This document shows, piece by piece, positions 3-9,912 of a stretch of 10,524 nt of DNA. Numbering within the stretch: the stretch's first letter is position 1; each line of letters begins with the position of its first letter. The notes under the pieces were generated by a model, which had not been told where the DNA came from, made no database searches, and saw only the letters and a list, made by a program, of their open reading frames with translations. Position numbers and translations under genes: made by a program. Origin of the DNA: a virus (Duplodnaviria; Heunggongvirae; Uroviricota; Caudoviricetes); the IMG/VR virus record IMGVR_UViG_2609459794_000002, positions 1-10,524 of that record. One strand, given 5' to 3'.

Positions 3-83
3 GTATTTGGCCTGCTGACGTACCTGACAAACCTTTATTTCAAGATTAAAGAAGATAAGCGCAAGGCTGCGAGAGGTGAATAA
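3..83 (+). CDS. Holin, C-terminal fragment (5' end lies outside the window)
   Basis: Frame-3 translation [26 protein letters not shown] ends at TAA 81-83, overlapping the endolysin ATG (TAATG). The hydrophobic-then-charged tail matches the phage 21 S / DLP12 EssD holin C-terminus as I recall it. Confidence 0.55.
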
Positions 84-580
84 TGCCTCCATCATTACGA
101 AAAGCCGTTGCTGCTGCTATTGGTGGCGGAGCAATTGCTATAGCATCAGTGTTAATCACTGGCTCAAGTGGTAACGATGGTCTGGAGGGTGTCAGCTACA
201 TACCATACAAAGATATTGTTGGTGTATGGACTGTATGTCACGGGCATACAGGAAAAGACATCATGCTCGGTAAAACGTATACCAAAGCAGAATGCAAAGC
301 ACTCTTGAATAAAGACCTTGCCACTGTCGCCAGACAAATTAACCCGTACATCAAAGTCGATATACCGGAAACAACGCGCGGCGCTCTTTACTCGTTCGTC
401 TACAACGTGGGTGCTGGCAATTTCAGAACATCGACGCTTCTTCGCAAAATAAACCAGGGTGATATTAAAGGCGCATGTGATCAGCTACGGCGCTGGACAT
501 ACGCTGGCGGTAATCAATGGAAAGGACTGATGACTCGCCGTGAGATTGAGCGTGAAGTCTGTTTGTGGGGGAAACAATGA
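83..580 (+). CDS. R: SAR endolysin (T4-lysozyme-like muramidase, phage 21 R / RrrD-like)
   Basis: 165 aa with a Gly/Ala-rich weakly hydrophobic N-terminus ([20 protein letters not shown]) typical of a signal-anchor-release domain. The catalytic E-x8-D-x5-T spacing is present ([17 protein letters not shown]). It sits between holin and Rz. Confidence 0.9.
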
Positions 581-1035
581 GCAGAGTAACCGCGATTATC
601 TCCGCTCTGGTTATCTGCATCATCGTCTGCCTGTCATTGGCTGTTAATCATTACCGTGATAACGCAATCGCCTACAAGGAGCAGCGCGATAACAAGGCCA
701 GTGAACTGGAGAAGGCGAACGCCACCATCGCTGACATGCGGAAGCGTCAACGTGATGTAGCAGAACTCGACGCAAGATACACAAAGGAGCTTGCTGATGC
801 TAACGCGACTATCGAAAGTCTCCGTGCTGATGTTTCTGCTGGGCGTAAGCGCCTGCAAGTCGCCGCCACCTGTGCAAAGTCAACGACCGGAGCCAGCGGC
901 ATGGGCGATGGAGAAAGCCCAGGACTTACAGCAGATGCTGAACTCAATTATTACCGTCTCCGAAGTGGAATCGACAAGATAACCGCGCAGGTTAACTACC
1001 TGCAGGAATACATCAGGACGCAATGCCTGAAATAA
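577..1035 (+). CDS. Rz: Rz i-spanin
   Basis: ATG 577-579 overlaps the endolysin stop (ATGA); the ORF track starts at GTG 565 but the ATG is more likely. N-terminal TM helix ([20 protein letters not shown]) followed by a coiled-coil-like periplasmic region, in the classic position after R. Confidence 0.85.
791..982 (+). CDS. Rz1: Rz1 o-spanin lipoprotein, embedded in +1 frame inside Rz
   Basis: Small ORF wholly inside Rz in another frame. Signal peptide with lipobox-like VSAC followed by a proline-rich mature region ([16 protein letters not shown]). True start may be the second Met at 797. Confidence 0.7.
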
Positions 1036-1236: not shown

Positions 1237-1734
1237 ATGAAATCATTAACCCTCTTCAATCAAGCAATTCGTATCGGTGAAGATGGCATGATCTGCCTCA
1301 CTGATATGTGGAAAGCCAGTGGTAAAAGTGAATCTGAATCGCCTTACCACTACCTGCGAAACAAGCAGACCAAAGAGTTCTTAGCCGAGCTGGAGAAAAA
1401 CCACGAATCTGTGGTTTTTACTGAGCGCGGTGTACACGGTGGAACATATGGCGGGAAGTTTGTTGCTTACGATTATGCGGCTTGGTTAAACCCCGGATTT
1501 AAATATGCAGCCTATAAAGTCCTGGATGACTACTTCACCGGAGAACTTCAGCATCGCAACAGCTTAAGTGCACAGCTCAATATGAAGTGTCATGAGTTTG
1601 ATCAGAAAAAAGATATGGCGAGCTTCTGCGGACAAGGGCTGGCGGCATGGCGCTATACGAAGCCAGTGTTGGTCGCTGAGATTAACTCCCTGGCTAACCA
1701 GCTGCAGATTACGATCCCCGGGCTTCCGGGATGA
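1237..1734 (+). CDS. KilA-N domain-like protein (phage antirepressor-type DNA-binding domain)
   Basis: 165 aa. The N-terminus IRIGEDGMICLTDMWKASGKSESESPYHYLRNKQTKEFLAELEK fits the KilA-N/APSES pattern (IR..DG...T.m.KA.GK....wlr...t.efl). Upstream AGGT Shine-Dalgarno-like motif. Confidence 0.6.
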   Translation: MKSLTLFNQAIRIGEDGMICLTDMWKASGKSESESPYHYLRNKQTKEFLAELEKNHESVVFTERGVHGGTYGGKFVAYDYAAWLNPGFKYAAYKVLDDYFTGELQHRNSLSAQLNMKCHEFDQKKDMASFCGQGLAAWRYTKPVLVAEINSLANQLQITIPGLPG

Positions 1735-1988
1735 GTGATCGTGTCATTGAATGCGCCTCCAGAGCGGGGCGTGACTTCTCAGAGTTCATGAAAGGTGAGA
1801 AGGGCATGATGGAAGCATTGTCCTCGGTGGATGAGTTTGGCGAGCAGCTGCGCCTCAACGGCTGTGTCAATCATCACTTTGTTAGCTACATGATGCGGAA
1901 CTCGATCATGCAGGCATTCATGGACATGGCAAAAGCCGAGAGGAAAGAAGAGCGCCGGCGTAAGCGAGCGGAAGCAAAAGCGAAGTAG
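1731..1988 (+). CDS. Hypothetical protein, start overlaps the KilA-N stop (ATGA)
   Basis: 85-aa ORF with a strongly charged Lys/Arg/Glu C-terminus. The ATGA overlap suggests translational coupling. No family recognised. Confidence 0.45.
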   Translation: MSDRVIECASRAGRDFSEFMKGEKGMMEALSSVDEFGEQLRLNGCVNHHFVSYMMRNSIMQAFMDMAKAERKEERRRKRAEAKAK

Positions 1989-2274
1989 CCATTACAAAGC
2001 CTATCTACGGGTGGGCTTGATAATGGCTTATACCCTACACGGGATAACTTAACTGATATCCCTTTTAAAGGATAAAGGTATTCAAGCCTGACACATCATG
2101 CGCTGTATCGTCGCCGTATTCCCGTATTAACAGAGACCGTAGCCCGACGGGGAACTCCTTCTGCGCGAGTGTGTGGGAATAATCAAAAACGATGCACACC
2201 GGGGTTACCGGGTACACATATTTCATCATGCCAGCGAGTCCGGTTCTGGCACGGAAGAAACCGGACGTTATGAT

Positions 2275-2685
2275 TTAGTGCGGAAATATTTGTGTAGTGT
2301 TCTGAATGTTCTCAGTAAAGAGTAATGAATTATCAAAGGTATAGTAATACCTTTTGTTTTCGTGGATATTTGTAATCCATCTGAAAACCCCTGCAGTAGC
2401 AAGATTTTTCCTGTATTCGTAAAATGATAACTCTCCTGATTTGAATCCTTTTAAGGTGGCTTCTATAAGGCATTTATTTTTTGAAAATCTTACATTTACA
2501 ACCTTACCCTGTCCTTTTATTAAAACCGTATTATCGTTTTCAAGAACAAGATGAATATTCTCTGTAGCTAAATAGTAAATGTAATGTGAGACATTGTGAC
2601 GTTTTAGTTCAGAATAAAACCAGTGATAGTTTAAATTATTTCGCACTTTATCGAATATTTGTTTAAAAATGGCAACCTGAGCCAT
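2275..2685 (-). CDS. AT-rich hypothetical protein, YdfO/YbcV-like (DUF1398-like, from memory), function unknown
   Basis: Minus-strand ORF. The ORF track starts at 2700, but the Met at 2685 (MAQVAIF...) has a GGAAGG Shine-Dalgarno-like motif about 9 nt upstream, giving 136 aa. The coding DNA is visibly AT-rich (roughly one-third GC by eye) compared with the flanking lambda-like DNA. Confidence 0.65.
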
Positions 2686-2741
2686 TGTAGTACCTTCCAT
2701 GTGATATGAGGGGCGTAGTCTGCACGATTATCTAAATTGCT

Positions 2742-2975
2742 TCAATCTGGTCTGATCTGTTTTCTGAGCAATTCAGTAATGTCACTCTTTTCTTTGTTTG
2801 CTTCAGGAGAAACTCTTTTTTCTGAGCACAGTCTCCGGCGGCAGGCTTCAATGACCCAGGCTGAGAAATTCCCGGACCCTTTTTGATCAAGAGCGATGTT
2901 AATTTGTTCAATCATTTGGTTAGGAAAGCGGATGTTGCGGATTGTTGTTCTGCGGGTTCTGTTCTTCGTTGACAT
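2742..2975 (-). CDS. Small ribbon-helix-helix (Arc/CopG-like) DNA-binding protein, YnfO/YlcI-like
   Basis: 77 aa. TTIRNIRFPNQMIEQINIALDQKGSGNFSAWVIEACRRRL fits a beta-strand / helix / G-x-S turn / helix RHH layout. It lies immediately upstream of, and on the same strand as, the AT-rich 136-aa gene. Confidence 0.6.
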   Translation of the reverse strand: MSTKNRTRRTTIRNIRFPNQMIEQINIALDQKGSGNFSAWVIEACRRRLCSEKRVSPEANKEKSDITELLRKQIRPD

Positions 2976-3119
2976 GAGGTTGTCCCGTATTCAGTGTCGC
3001 TGATTTGTATTGTCTGAAGTTGTTTTTACGTTAAGTTGATGCAGATCAATTAATATGATACCTGCGTCATAATTGATTATTTGACGTGGTTTGATGGCGT
3101 AGATGCACGTTGTGACATG

Positions 3120-3363
3120 CAGATGATAATTATTATCATTTTGCGGGTCCTTTCCGGCGATCCGACAGGTTACGGGGCGGCGACCTCGCGGGTTTTCGCT
3201 ATTTATGAAAATTTTCCGGTTTAAGGCGTTTCCGTTCTTCTTCGCCGTAACTTAATGTTTTTATTTAAAACACCCCCTGAAAAGAAAGGAAACGACAGGT
3301 GCTGAAAACGGGCTTTTTGGCCTCTGTCGTTTCCTTTCTCTGTTTTTGTCCGTGGAATGAACA
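3120..3363. other. cos: Lambda-type cos site (cosQ-cosN-cosB), with the cosN 12-nt cohesive-end sequence GGGCGGCGACCT at 3175-3186
   Basis: The sequence ...GATCCGACAGGTTACG|GGGCGGCGACCT|CGCGGGTTTTCGCTATTTATGAAAATTTTCCGG... matches the lambda right-end/left-end junction as I recall it. Nu1 starts about 190 bp downstream, as in lambda. Confidence 0.8.
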
Positions 3364-3883
3364 ATGGAAGTCAACAAAAAGCAGCTGGCTGACATTTTCG
3401 GTGCGAGTATCCGTACCATTCAGAACTGGCAGGAGCAGGGAATGCCCGTTCTGCGAGGCGGTGGGAAGGGTAATGAGGTGCTTTATGACTCTGCCACCGT
3501 CATAAAATGGTATGCCGAAAGGGATGCTGAAATTGAGAACGAAAAGCTGCGCCGGGAGGTTGAAGAACTGCGGCAGGCCAGCGAGACAGATCTGCAGCCA
3601 GGGACTATTGAGTACGAACGCCATCGACTTACGCGTGCGCAGGCCGACGCACAGGAGCTGAAGAATGCCAGAGACTCCGCTGAAGTGGTGGAAACCGCAT
3701 TCTGTACTTTCGTGCTGTCGCGGATCGCAGGTGAAATTGCCAGTATTCTCGACGGGATCCCCCTGTCGGTGCAGCGGCGTTTTCCGGAACTGGAAAACCG
3801 ACATGTTGATTTCCTGAAACGGGATATCATCAAAGCCATGAACAAAGCAGCCGCGCTGGATGAACTGATACCGGGGTTGCTGA

Positions 3884-3909
<26 letters not shown>
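3364..3909 (+). CDS. nu1: Terminase small subunit Nu1
   Basis: 181 aa, MEVNKKQLADIFGASIRTIQNWQEQGMPVLRGGGKGNEVLYDS..., near-identical to lambda gpNu1 as recalled, with the N-terminal winged-HTH region. Lambda-like overlap with A. Confidence 0.95.
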
Positions 3910-6890
<2,981 letters not shown>

Positions 6891-7038: not shown

Positions 7039-8280
7039 ATGGCTATTGAAAACAAACTCAGTGACAAACTGTTAAAGAGTCTTGTCGGAAAACGGCAGGA
7101 CAAACAAAAAACAATAGCGGATGGGCGCGGGTTGTCTGTGCGTGTAAGCATGGTTGGGGGGATCAGCTTTGTTTTTTACTATCGTCTTGGTGGCAGGGAA
7201 TCCCCTCCGGTATGGCTTACACTTGGTCGCTATCCTGACATGTCTCTTGCAACGGCCAGGCGCATGCGTGATCAGTGCCGTGAATGGCTGGCTGAAAATC
7301 TGGACCCCCGCAGGCAAATAAAACTTGCTGCCGAAAAAACTATGCAACCAGTGACCGTAAGGGATGCGCTGTTTTACTGGTACGACAATCACGCCACAAC
7401 AGCCAGAAAAGAGCATGAATATTTAATAAAACGATTTGAAAAGCATATCTTCCCCTATATCGGTGATATGGCTATAGAACAGTGCAAATTACACACATGG
7501 CTTACCGTCTTTGACAGGATCAAAAAAAATGCGCCTGTTATGTCTGGTGCAATTTTTCTTGATATCAAACAGGCGTTGCGTTTTTGTCGCGTCAGGCAAT
7601 ACATCGCGTGCGATCCCTTTGGAGATATTAACGTAAGTTATGTCGGGCGCTCATCCGGTATAAGGGATCGCGTTCTTAATATCAATGAAACCGCTGATGT
7701 ATGGTCTTATGCTTACGGTAATAATTTGCTAACTCTGTCATCAATATATAACCGAAGAATAATGGTTATCTGCCTGGTGTTTGGTTGCCGACAGCAGGAG
7801 GCGAGGCTATCCACCTGGGACGAATGGGATTTAAAAAACTGGGTATGGACAGTCCCAAAAGAGCACAGCAAAAACAAGGAGGCTATAGTAAGGCCTGTTC
7901 CTGACGGAATAAAACAATGGATCGTTAATCTTTACGCAGAAACAAAAAATCGCGGTTATGTTGTCGGTTGTGCTTTGCAAAGGGCGACAATAACAGGGGC
8001 TGCAAACAGAATATGCAGGCGTCTTGGTCATGATACTAATGGCTTGTGGTGCATACATGATTTCAGGCGCACATTTTCCACTACGCTTAATGATATGGGG
8101 GCGGATCCTTATATTGTCGAACTTCTTTTAGGTCATAAAGTGAAAGGGGTTGCTGGTGTTTACAATAAAAGCAGGCATATAAAGAAAAAACTTGAGGTGC
8201 TTAATATGTGGGTTAATTACCTTAATACGATAGCAGGATTTAACAACAACGTTATCGAGCTTAATAAAGAGGTGGTGTGA
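7039..8280 (+). CDS. int: Tyrosine recombinase / phage integrase (P4-like family)
   Basis: 413 aa. N-terminal arm-binding-like region (IADGRGLSVRV...FVFYYRLGGRE...LTLGRYPDMSLATARRMRDQ...LDP). C-terminal catalytic signatures: IHDFRRT (His-x-x-Arg), LLGH, and a Tyr in GVYNKS. GAGGG Shine-Dalgarno 7 nt upstream. Confidence 0.9.
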   Translation: MAIENKLSDKLLKSLVGKRQDKQKTIADGRGLSVRVSMVGGISFVFYYRLGGRESPPVWLTLGRYPDMSLATARRMRDQCREWLAENLDPRRQIKLAAEKTMQPVTVRDALFYWYDNHATTARKEHEYLIKRFEKHIFPYIGDMAIEQCKLHTWLTVFDRIKKNAPVMSGAIFLDIKQALRFCRVRQYIACDPFGDINVSYVGRSSGIRDRVLNINETADVWSYAYGNNLLTLSSIYNRRIMVICLVFGCRQQEARLSTWDEWDLKNWVWTVPKEHSKNKEAIVRPVPDGIKQWIVNLYAETKNRGYVVGCALQRATITGAANRICRRLGHDTNGLWCIHDFRRTFSTTLNDMGADPYIVELLLGHKVKGVAGVYNKSRHIKKKLEVLNMWVNYLNTIAGFNNNVIELNKEVV

Positions 8281-8281
8281 T

Positions 8282-8539
8282 ATGGCAATTTATTCTCTTG
8301 TTGATGAAAACGATTTGCGCACAATGAAGGACATTGATCGGTTCATTCGTGAAAAAGAGTGCATAGCACTTACCACGCTGGCAAACTCAACACGCTGGAA
8401 AATGGAGCAGGCAGGTAAATTCCCGCGACGTATCAAGATCGGTGAACGTGCTGCAGGGTATCGACTTTCAGAGGTTCAGGCATGGATCCGTGGTGAGTGG
8501 CATCCTGGGTGGAAACCTGGAAAAACAAAACAGCAATAA
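8282..8539 (+). CDS. alpA: AlpA-family transcriptional regulator / excisionase-like protein
   Basis: 85 aa starting 1 nt after the int stop. LANSTRWKMEQAGKFPRRIKIGERAAGYRLSEVQAWIR fits the AlpA / MerR-like excisionase HTH pattern. Confidence 0.75.
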   Translation: MAIYSLVDENDLRTMKDIDRFIREKECIALTTLANSTRWKMEQAGKFPRRIKIGERAAGYRLSEVQAWIRGEWHPGWKPGKTKQQ

Positions 8540-8595: not shown

Positions 8596-9174
8596 ATGAA
8601 TAAAAATATTGCCGTGACGGGCAAGGGGTACGCTCGTCCAGTGAAAAAATTCTGCGATATTCGTGATCTCGTCGTTCTGCGCTTTGATAGTGTGAACGTT
8701 CGTGTGGTGTATCTGAACGGCGATCCGTGGTTTGTTGCAAAAGATGTTTGTGCTGCGCTGGAACTAACCAATTCGCGTACGGCGTTGCAGATGCTTGATG
8801 ATGATGAAAAGGGAGTAAATTTAACTTACACCCCAGGAGGAAATCAGAATATGAGAATTATCTCTGAGTCAGGTTTCTACAAACTAATAGCCCGCAGCCG
8901 CAAAGCAACGACGCCTGGCACATTTGCTCATCGTTTCAGTAACTGGGTATTCAGAAATGTGATACCAGGTATCAGAAAAACGGGGACTTATGGTATCCCG
9001 TGGGGTGCATTACAGGTTTTTCCCCGCCGTAAAGAGCAATATCAAATAAGTGCCAGCGAGAAGGGGAGGGAGCTACAGGCATGTAAGCGCAAAAAGCGTG
9101 AGCTGGAGGAAGAAGAAAAAACGCTGATACGTGAATATCAGCCTGAGTTTTACTTTGGTAACCGCATTCAGTGA
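8596..9174 (+). CDS. Bro-N domain protein (phage antirepressor-like)
   Basis: 192 aa. DPWFVAKDVCAALELTNSRTALQMLDDDEKG...RIISESGFYKLIARSRKATTPGTFAHRFSNWVFRNVIPGIRKTGTY fits the Bro-N consensus. The C-terminus is charged and coiled-coil-like (KRKKRELEEEEKTLIRE). Confidence 0.8.
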   Translation: MNKNIAVTGKGYARPVKKFCDIRDLVVLRFDSVNVRVVYLNGDPWFVAKDVCAALELTNSRTALQMLDDDEKGVNLTYTPGGNQNMRIISESGFYKLIARSRKATTPGTFAHRFSNWVFRNVIPGIRKTGTYGIPWGALQVFPRRKEQYQISASEKGRELQACKRKKRELEEEEKTLIREYQPEFYFGNRIQ

Positions 9175-9507: not shown

Positions 9508-9813
9508 CTATTCATGCTCTTTGACCTTGCGTCGCTGGAGTTCTTCACGCGCGACGGTGACGAGTTGCCCGATCTCCTCGGCTGCTTTGATGCCGATTTG
9601 TTCGACCTTAGCCAGGGCATCCAGTGACGACACAAGGGGATTTTCTCCGCTGCCTTCTGCTTGGCGGCGGGCTATTTCTCCGCGCATGGCGGTTACGATA
9701 AATCCGGCATTGCTTTCACCGTCCAGCTTAACGGATTCCATCCCTTGCATAACATCTAGTGGGACTCTGACAGTTGTCAGTTGTGATTTTGCGTTTTTGT
9801 TAGCCGTTGCCAT
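9508..9813 (-). CDS. Hypothetical regulator with an RHH-like N-terminus (101 aa)
   Basis: GGAG Shine-Dalgarno 9 nt upstream of the ATG. TTVRVPLDVMQGMESVKLDGESNAGFIVTAMRGEIARR resembles a ribbon-helix-helix fold. Transcribed divergently from the operator region. Confidence 0.55.
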   Translation of the reverse strand: MATANKNAKSQLTTVRVPLDVMQGMESVKLDGESNAGFIVTAMRGEIARRQAEGSGENPLVSSLDALAKVEQIGIKAAEEIGQLVTVAREELQRRKVKEHE

Positions 9814-9834: not shown

Positions 9835-9912
9835 GTGTGTTTCAGTATACACAAAAAAAGAAATACAAAAAGCCTTGACGTGTGTTTCATGCGCTCATAA
9901 CATGAAACACAC
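9835..9912. promoter_or_regulatory. Divergent promoter/operator region: perfect 12-bp inverted repeat with 9-bp spacer (9880-9912), a third half-site at 9836-9845, and candidate -35/-10 elements
   Basis: GTGTGTTTCATG (9880-9891) and CATGAAACACAC (9901-9912) form the palindrome. TTGACG (9875-9880) with a 17-bp spacer to TAACAT (9898-9903) is a candidate plus-strand promoter overlapped by the palindrome. The minus strand has a TATACT -10-like hexamer next to the third half-site. Confidence 0.55.

Follow-up and report, generated by a model that had tools for sequence, protein, structure and literature searches.

Two short genes lie side by side next to the cos site of a lambdoid prophage and are read against the late operon. 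The initial annotation saw in them an AT-rich cassette, in which a small RHH regulator precedes a larger effector in the manner of RHH-antitoxin/toxin pairs or of repressor-controlled accessory cassettes. The question raised by this locus is whether the two genes belong together as a functional unit, and what role each of them could have in the phage or in its host.

The window, that is the whole stretch of 10,524 nt that was analyzed, represents the remnant of an E. coli lambdoid prophage of the DLP12 type. Its positions 1900-3400 match the chromosome of E. coli KH_005 at 100% identity, in the ybcL-to-cusS region. The features relevant to this study are:

83-580, plus strand: lysozyme gene
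565-1035, plus strand: Rz
1237-1734, plus strand: KilA-N/ORF11CD3 gene
1731-1988, plus strand: gene for an 85-aa protein
2275-2685, minus strand: DUF1398 gene (YdfO/YbcV/lambdap78 family), 136 aa, likely extent
2686-2762, minus strand: upstream block of the DUF1398 gene, with Shine-Dalgarno sequence, -10-like hexamer and palindrome
2742-2975, minus strand: YnfO/YlcI-family gene (DUF3950), 77 aa, Pfam PF13132 at E 5.3e-21
2976-3174, no strand assigned: stretch from the start codon of the DUF3950 gene to cosN, ~97% identical to the lambda right end
3175-3186, plus strand: cosN, 12-nt cohesive-end sequence GGGCGGCGACCT, single exact match
3364-3909, plus strand: Nu1, Pfam Phage_Nu1 at E 1.5e-100
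3884-5809, plus strand: TerL
beyond TerL: W, then a broken portal gene

Since lysozyme, Rz, Nu1 and TerL are all on the plus strand, the gene pair (2742-2975, then 2275-2685) is antisense to the late operon, as had been proposed. The lambda cohesive end GGGCGGCGACCT is present as one exact copy in the window and in none of 200 shuffles, and cosN is 200 nt from the start codon of the DUF3950 gene. An inverted repeat, ATCAATTA (3045-3052) and TAATTGAT (3070-3077), is found between the two. The YnfO/YlcI gene thus starts 200 nt from the cos end and reads inward, with the DUF1398 gene just behind it. The lysis-to-terminase gap had been described as an accessory-gene slot, and it is indeed a variable one: its contents between Rz and cos differ among lambda, DLP12, Qin, PhiR49_1 and BP-4795, and depending on the phage, bor, ybcW, KilA-N, Ant or no gene at all is found there. 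Presence or absence between otherwise similar neighbors in related phages, as expected of a moron, was therefore observed.

Identity, composition and selection of the two genes

The 136-aa protein matches Pfam PF07166 (DUF1398) over the complete profile (positions 1-119 of 119) with 147 bits (cut-off 22; E 3.3e-43). It also aligns with the YdfO structure, PDB 2HH8, at 76% identity (E 1.4e-69) and belongs to the YdfO fold. The 77-aa protein matches Pfam PF13132 with 74.7 bits (cut-off 25; E 5.3e-21) and the NCBIfam model YlcI_YnfO_N (NF041551) with 35.7 bits (cut-off 30; E 6.5e-9). The families that the initial annotation had named, YnfO/YlcI (DUF3950, E 5e-21) and YdfO/YbcV (DUF1398, E 3e-43), were thus the right ones, and RefSeq already carries names for both genes. 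No function for either family is given in the literature consulted, again in line with the initial annotation. Read from its first ATG (2700), the larger ORF covers 2275-2700 and encodes 141 aa. Because a Shine-Dalgarno sequence, GGAAGG (2698-2693), is placed 7 nt ahead of the second ATG (2685) and the RefSeq length of the DUF1398 protein is 136 aa, its coding region is likely 2275-2685.

The DUF1398 gene has a GC content of 31.1%, compared to 49.1% for the window. Equally low values occur in just 0.3% of all 411-nt windows, and the minimum (30.4%) starts at 2265, so that the gene is the low point of the whole stretch. This is the composition unlike its surroundings that is expected of a moron, and the break is real. 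It is confined to one member of the pair, as the DUF3950 gene has 43.6% GC overall (48% in the conserved N-terminal 50 codons and 36% in the tail), and the description of the cassette as strongly AT-rich holds for the 136-aa gene only. The break had also been taken as a hallmark of horizontal acquisition, but it does not date acquisition by the prophage. All DUF1398 homologues examined have a GC content 5-15 points under that of their flanks, solitary chromosomal copies included, and low GC is no mark of recent acquisition because the trait is family-wide. In addition, GC at second codon positions is 0.26, which means that part of the AT bias reflects the high N, K, I, F and Y content of the protein.

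Both genes are real and under purifying selection. For DUF1398, omega is 0.18-0.36 and never above 1; the central third of the gene evolves faster, with omega up to 0.60. Y35, T41, N43, W103 and Y114 are among the residues conserved in the protein. Codons 1-50 of the DUF3950 gene show omega of 0.03-0.11 at dS up to 1.6. The basic N-terminal 50 residues that they encode (2826-2975) are near-invariant across phage types, and the C-terminal tail (2742-2825) is variable.

It is plausible that the 77-aa protein is of the RHH type, as initially annotated. The AF2 monomer has an extended segment at residues 11-18 and helices at 19-32 and 34-52, with pLDDT of ~80 in the core; the strand of RHH proteins pairs only in the dimer, and the model is that of a monomer. 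The protein resembles P22 Arc and Mnt in its small size, in its basic N-terminal arm and in an N-[IL]-R-[FW]-P strand motif followed by two helices, the N-I-R-F-P of the 77-aa protein being in register with the N-L-R-W-P strand of Arc. It differs from them in having no defined ant-type target or conserved operator, and the match is not significant (hhalign probability 1.7% for Arc and 0.2% for Mnt). Foldseek gave a best E of 8.9, also not significant, and the protein profile found no match at E<=10 among PDB sequences, so that significant similarity to a solved RHH protein was obtained neither by sequence nor by structure. There is no shared operator ahead of the gene, where the DNA is unrelated between lambda-type and BP-4795-type phages. 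An operator role of 2976-3174 can only be suggested because this region is not conserved ahead of the gene in BP-4795-type phages.

Linkage of the two genes and the DUF1398 upstream block

The pair has a counterpart in the K-12 Qin prophage, in which ynfO-ydfO, beside nohA, have the same order, strand and spacing (56-57 nt) as in the window and lie on the same side of a Nu1-like gene and cos (gene order gnsB, ydfO, ynfO, nohA). Qin YnfO is 95% identical to the 77-aa protein, and the intergenic DNA is near-identical up to the DUF1398 start codon. In contrast, the DUF1398 allele is only 76% identical to that of Qin. The dS against Qin is 0.00 for the DUF3950 gene and 0.72 for the DUF1398 gene, which places a recombination joint between them. 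The DUF1398 gene of the window is a mosaic, because its first residues are lambda-like. The left neighbors are also different, namely KilA-N and the 85-aa gene in the window, and gnsB and cspI in Qin.

In lambda, both families again occupy the slot that separates the lysis genes from cos, with the strand the same as in the window, and DLP12 ybcV-ybcW-ylcI is arranged likewise. Lambda carries lambdap78, 76% identical to the DUF1398 protein of the window, and an unannotated 64-aa YlcI-like ORF (48109-48303) that lies ~200 nt from the right end. The N-terminal part of the DUF3950 gene and all DNA from there to cos are ~97% identical between the window and lambda/DLP12, compared to ~80% for the DUF1398 gene of lambda. 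In lambda and DLP12 the two genes are ~650 nt apart, with ~570 nt of extra DNA and ybcW/lambdap79 on the opposite strand between them. The DUF3950 protein of these two elements is a 64-aa form with a different tail, and bor is on the left.

It is common for either gene to occur on its own. By tblastn, 154 phage records contain the DUF3950 gene and 43 contain DUF1398. In BP-4795 and Lys8385Vzw the former stands without DUF1398 beside an unrelated HNH/TerS/TerL packaging module; it is the final gene ahead of that module and lies on the opposite strand. The DUF3950 family has also been listed in capsid-forming PICIs (PMC13612085). Among complete E. coli genomes, its conserved 150-nt block is present at 9861 places in 4184 genomes, with up to 12 per genome, and full-length prophage-type DUF1398 is present in 3011.

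The DUF1398 family, in turn, has members far from any packaging genes. None of the 24 diverged loci taken from other genomes (ycgX, Kluyvera, Raoultella, Pseudocitrobacter and S. enterica diarizonae) has DUF3950, Nu1, TerL or Rz within 6 kb. E. coli ycgX and the chromosomal relatives in Kluyvera, Klebsiella aerogenes and Raoultella are of the same family and length as the window gene, with 21-48% identity. They share its GC content below that of the surroundings; they differ from it in being solitary, with no RHH partner in the vicinity and no genes for packaging or lysis either. DUF1398 is a species-wide chromosomal gene in K. aerogenes and Raoultella. The chromosomal sites are near icd, bluR/bluF or a MASE4-GGDEF gene, and E. 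coli ycgX adjoins bluR, bluF and iraM. Only 189 relatives of DUF1398 emerged when 1.84 billion representative proteins were searched exhaustively; those that were full-length, informative and traceable are enterobacterial. Identical DUF1398 proteins are found in the deposited phages PhiR49_1, Kati, Chlobot and ev099.

The DUF1398 gene is accompanied by DNA of its own. The alignment showed that ~75 nt ahead of it are common to the window, Qin, lambda and the DLP12-type locus, and that this block starts exactly at the palindrome GGTCAGACC (in the window GATCAGACC), beyond which the upstream DNA of the two arrangements is unrelated. The block contains the Shine-Dalgarno sequence GGAAGG (2698-2693), a -10-like GATAAT (2732-2727) and the palindrome at 2748-2757 (TGGTCTGATC on the plus strand). 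The ynfO stop codon (2742-2744) falls inside the block, and the long tail of the 77-aa protein is thus read across a recombination joint. Judged from these alignments, the block is autonomous.

The palindrome is equivalent to the PdhR box of K-12 ydfO/ybcV. A PdhR site ahead of both ybcV and ydfO was mapped by gSELEX, and ybcV mRNA was 10-fold down in a pdhR mutant (PMC7660256). The window copy differs from that of Qin by one G-to-A change and has two mismatches to the PdhR core TGGTnnnACCA, that is, it is a weakened copy, and a scan for the core at <=1 mismatch did not detect it. A moron is expected to carry its own promoter and terminator. The window offers a conserved block with the -10-like hexamer and the palindrome, yet a simple scan of the minus strand found no consensus sigma-70 promoter and no canonical terminator, and no promoter, terminator or RNA structure scored above shuffled controls.

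The case for a single operon is similarly divided. The gap between the two genes is 56 nt with no terminator in between, and read-through from the promoter of the DUF3950 gene into DUF1398 may occur in the Qin-type arrangement; yet DUF1398 has its own block, and lambda and DLP12 have an intervening gene on the opposite strand. Neither obligatory linkage across genomes nor co-evolution of the partners (dS 0.00 and 0.72 against Qin), both hallmarks of type II toxin-antitoxin systems, was found. The idea of a functional unit made up of both genes is thus not supported.

Proposed roles and alternative explanations

The DUF1398 protein is an orphan fold with no resemblance to toxins, enzymes or capsid proteins. 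Its predicted model (pLDDT 87.9) consists of two alpha-alpha-beta-beta-beta halves. Comparison with BFVD gave nothing at E<=0.001, and no structural similarity to capsid proteins was found in the PDB or BFVD. No known toxin fold or family was recognized, nor was a signal peptide or a hydrophobic segment. In PADLOC-DB 2.0 the best match of DUF1398 had an E of 0.023 (Csx23, 12.7 bits) and the 77-aa protein had none; toxin, antitoxin and defense matches were absent for both proteins in PADLOC and NCBIfam. A PADLOC-based assignment to defense or anti-defense was discarded for lack of a match. Gene neighborhood did not point to a function either, as no neighbors of DUF1398 are conserved across genera. 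In Kluyvera, synteny is only local and limited to the surroundings of icd, where GGDEF, CSD and DinI genes occur; an upstream ORF of 74 aa had no Pfam match.

The ydfO gene is induced ~100-fold by ionic liquid (PMC4077768). Overexpression of YdfO has been reported to raise oxidative-stress resistance, by a secondary citation in PMC4077768 on which the claim solely rests, as ydfO is absent from Wang et al. 2010 (PMC3105296). Knock-down of lambdap78 leaves plaque formation by lambda intact, and for lambdap79 the authors explain the "essential" score by a roadblock polarity that affects the late transcript (PMC10695390).

Taking these data together, we consider it probable that the locus consists of two independent accessory modules, with DUF1398 being host-regulated in the lysogen and the small protein acting as a DNA-binding regulator. 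Recombination would have placed two catalogued lambdoid modules side by side in the order of K-12 Qin (ynfO, then ydfO). The first module would comprise the DUF1398 gene and the ~75 nt ahead of it that belong to it, with transcription opposed to that of the late operon. Host factors, and not the phage lytic programme, would most likely control this module, as PdhR demonstrably controls the K-12 copies, the window palindrome being a weakened version. Silencing of its AT-rich DNA by H-NS may add to this control. The product would be soluble and cytoplasmic, with an alpha/beta orphan fold that is duplicated internally, and would lack enzyme-like as well as toxin-like features. From the lack of other features we infer that it may bind a host protein or a small ligand and thereby tune host physiology in the lysogen. 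Such a role would explain why the gene survives in defective prophages and as a solitary chromosomal gene, a persistence that would fit a function neutral or useful to the host.

The second module would be a small basic protein, most likely a DNA-binding dimer that regulates transcription. Its conserved partner would be a position, that of the last opposite-strand gene before the packaging module, and not DUF1398.

One alternative is that the genes serve conflicts among phages, either by superinfection exclusion or defense in the lysogen or by counter-defense early after DNA entry. The cos-adjacent slot is also home to bor and ybcW/lambdap79, and a 2026 preprint on a NADase defense domain names lambdap79 six times. 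The faster central third of DUF1398 and the loss of ydfO listed for one phage-resistant APEC mutant (PMC8711792) are consistent with this idea. We nevertheless regard it as unlikely, given the PADLOC results, purifying selection with no omega above 1 and the stable chromosomal orthologues outside prophages. The normal plaques after lambdap78 knock-down also speak against it, on a host itself poor in defense systems. Because K-12, the host of that plaque test, is without most defense systems, the knock-down says little on counter-defense.

Another possibility is that the 77-aa protein serves the packaging or late module, binding near cos or modulating late transcription, with DUF1398 as a passenger. 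Its gene is constantly found just before the packaging genes, even when the terminases are unrelated and in capsid-forming PICIs. The 50-residue core is very strongly conserved, and identity to lambda is ~97% from the N-terminus through cos as opposed to ~80% for the DUF1398 gene. Against this, the unrelated upstream DNA of lambda-type and BP-4795-type phages leaves no shared nearby site, and the gene is kept in defective prophages no longer able to package. For lambda packaging, no phage factor beyond Nu1/A, together with host IHF, is known to be required at cos. We therefore see a packaging role as quite improbable.

The initial proposal, a type II toxin-antitoxin or repressor-effector pair in which the RHH protein, bound to the operator, neutralizes or represses a 136-aa protein that is toxic or defensive once released, now appears very unlikely. 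The likeness to RHH-antitoxin operons (ParD/ParE, CopG-type) lies in a small DNA-binding-like gene followed on the same strand by a larger one after only 56 nt and no terminator, and in the conserved DNA-binding-like N-terminus and variable, antitoxin-like C-terminal tail of the first protein. Overexpression of ybcV gave a glycogen-deficient phenotype, in the same list as the toxins hokA and yoeB (PMC2853380). Mild toxicity of DUF1398 is conceivable on the basis of that list. The pair differs from such operons in that its partners are not obligatorily linked and have not co-evolved, and in that DUF1398 has its own upstream block and no toxin fold. Solitary DUF1398 genes are stable and species-wide, the genes of lambda and DLP12 are split by ~650 nt and an opposite-strand gene, and neither PADLOC nor NCBIfam yields a toxin, antitoxin or defense match. 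Recombination joints within the 3' end of the DUF3950 gene account for the variable tails. Moreover, the 2HH8 chain has 149 residues against 141 in the native protein, as YdfO was made with a C-terminal tag for NMR; under the usual practice of structural-genomics centers, such tagged production implies that overexpression is tolerated in E. coli.

There is a comparably slim chance that the right-end genes are expressed before the rest of the genome enters or circularizes and act as pre-early factors. Packaging of lambda DNA begins at the Nu1 end, and the right cohesive end is the first to leave the virion. Under this explanation, promoters recognized by the host would drive factors that blunt host defense, or that protect or mark the entering DNA end. 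It would explain why the small gene stays end-proximal in phages, and also in satellites, whose packaging enzymes are unrelated.

That the 136-aa protein would be a virion protein, as the labels "head protein" (PHROG 413 and RefSeq) and "putative envelope protein" (older records) have it, can be dismissed as extremely improbable, since the gene runs against the late operon and is non-essential in lambda, missing from most phages with the same head genes and present as solitary chromosomal copies, and since its product has no capsid-like structure in the PDB or BFVD and no signal peptide or hydrophobic segment.

Significance of two probably independent modules

The pair itself was already known: it is the ynfO-ydfO arrangement of Qin, it is annotated in RefSeq, and it is carried by most E. 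coli genomes as well as by lambda. The structure of one member, YdfO, has been solved since 2006. Nonetheless, two genes of the best-studied phage are still functionally unassigned, and the lambda reference record leaves the ylcI-like ORF unannotated. The "head protein" and "envelope protein" labels of DUF1398 that are spreading in databases appear to be unfounded. For the function of these families, the independence of the two modules points away from toxin-antitoxin assays and toward host partners and regulon.

Neighbours in the lysis-to-cos slot

The cassette formed by the DUF1398 gene (2275-2685) and the RHH gene of the YnfO/YlcI family (2742-2975), both on the minus strand, has the following neighbours in the window:

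1237-1734, gene for a KilA-N/ORF11CD3 protein, located after Rz and before the cassette
2065-2229, minus strand, 54-aa ORF downstream of the DUF1398 gene

The stretch at 2065-2229 is conserved in 420 phage records, exceeding the counts of both the DUF1398 and the RHH gene. Its lambda counterpart is broken across two frames. In HK629 the matching DNA is annotated as "promoter" and corresponds in position to the DNA upstream of bor in lambda; bor itself is absent from this neighbourhood in the window. The stretch may be conserved DNA and not a gene.

The KilA-N/ORF11CD3 protein partly matches PDC-S22, a candidate model in PADLOC, over 31 residues (E 8.8e-9). In BP-4795 and Lys8385Vzw, phages that carry the RHH gene without DUF1398, the same slot holds antirepressor-like genes (Ant, Rha). 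In lambda and DLP12, the plus-strand gene lambdap79/ybcW (lambda 47738-47944) sits between the DUF1398 and YlcI/YnfO families, whereas it is missing from the window. In a 2026 bioRxiv preprint on a DUF4062 NADase defence domain, lambdap79 is named six times.

Upstream of DUF1398, the palindrome at 2748-2757 is the counterpart of the PdhR box of K-12 ydfO and differs from it by a G-to-A change (GATCAGACC vs GGTCAGACC). PdhR control of the DUF1398 copy in the window may be weaker.

Annotation of the two families and database matches

The DUF1398 protein (lambdap78 in lambda) is labelled "head protein" by PHROG 413 and RefSeq, and "putative envelope protein" in older records. Both labels sit poorly with its strand, non-essentiality, distribution and fold, and with the lack of hydrophobic segments. 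In lambda it is annotated at 177 aa, with a start well upstream of the conserved one. Lambda also carries a 64-aa ORF of the YlcI/YnfO family on the minus strand (3110-3304 of locus L002; 48109-48303 of NC_001416), with the right cohesive end about 200 nt away. This ORF has no gene annotation in the reference record NC_001416, but the family is annotated at the same place in other lambda-like records.

Many protein-search matches to both proteins were ENA contigs of about 3.5 kb or entries that carried the labels Staphylococcus aureus, Bacillus, Klebsiella or even spider. They appear to be lambda right-end DNA present as a contaminant, and the lambda control fragment (about 3.6 kb) of nanopore sequencing is a possible source. 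The same contamination may lie behind papers that report DUF1398 or YlcI in fungi.

The right part of the window

6009-6890, lambda-type portal gene, split between frames and truncated at about 6890
7039-8280, integrase
8282-8539, AlpA-family gene
8596-9174, Bro-N gene
9508-9813, minus strand, 101-aa ORF
from 10193, IS1 transposase fragment

The run that follows the truncated portal gene, from the integrase at 7039 through the AlpA-family and Bro-N genes, looks like a P4/PICI-type satellite. The IS1 fragment lies after these genes, unlike in E. coli KH_005, a chromosome matching window 1900-3400, where IS1 directly follows the integrase; the window therefore stems from another strain. Within the satellite-like part, the 101-aa ORF has no Pfam match; the strand-then-helix pattern of its N-terminus (TTVRVPLDVMQGM...) recalls RHH proteins.

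Chromosomal DUF1398 genes near icd

Kluyvera chromosomal DUF1398 genes (L011 and other loci) are found near icd and adjoin MASE4-GGDEF, cold-shock-domain and DinI-like genes. E. coli ycgX (locus L033) is flanked by bluR/bluF and the icd-linked e14 prophage. In both, c-di-GMP genes lie close to DUF1398.

The icd neighbourhood common to the Kluyvera and ycgX sites, together with their typical prophage passenger genes, suggests that they represent old decayed prophage.
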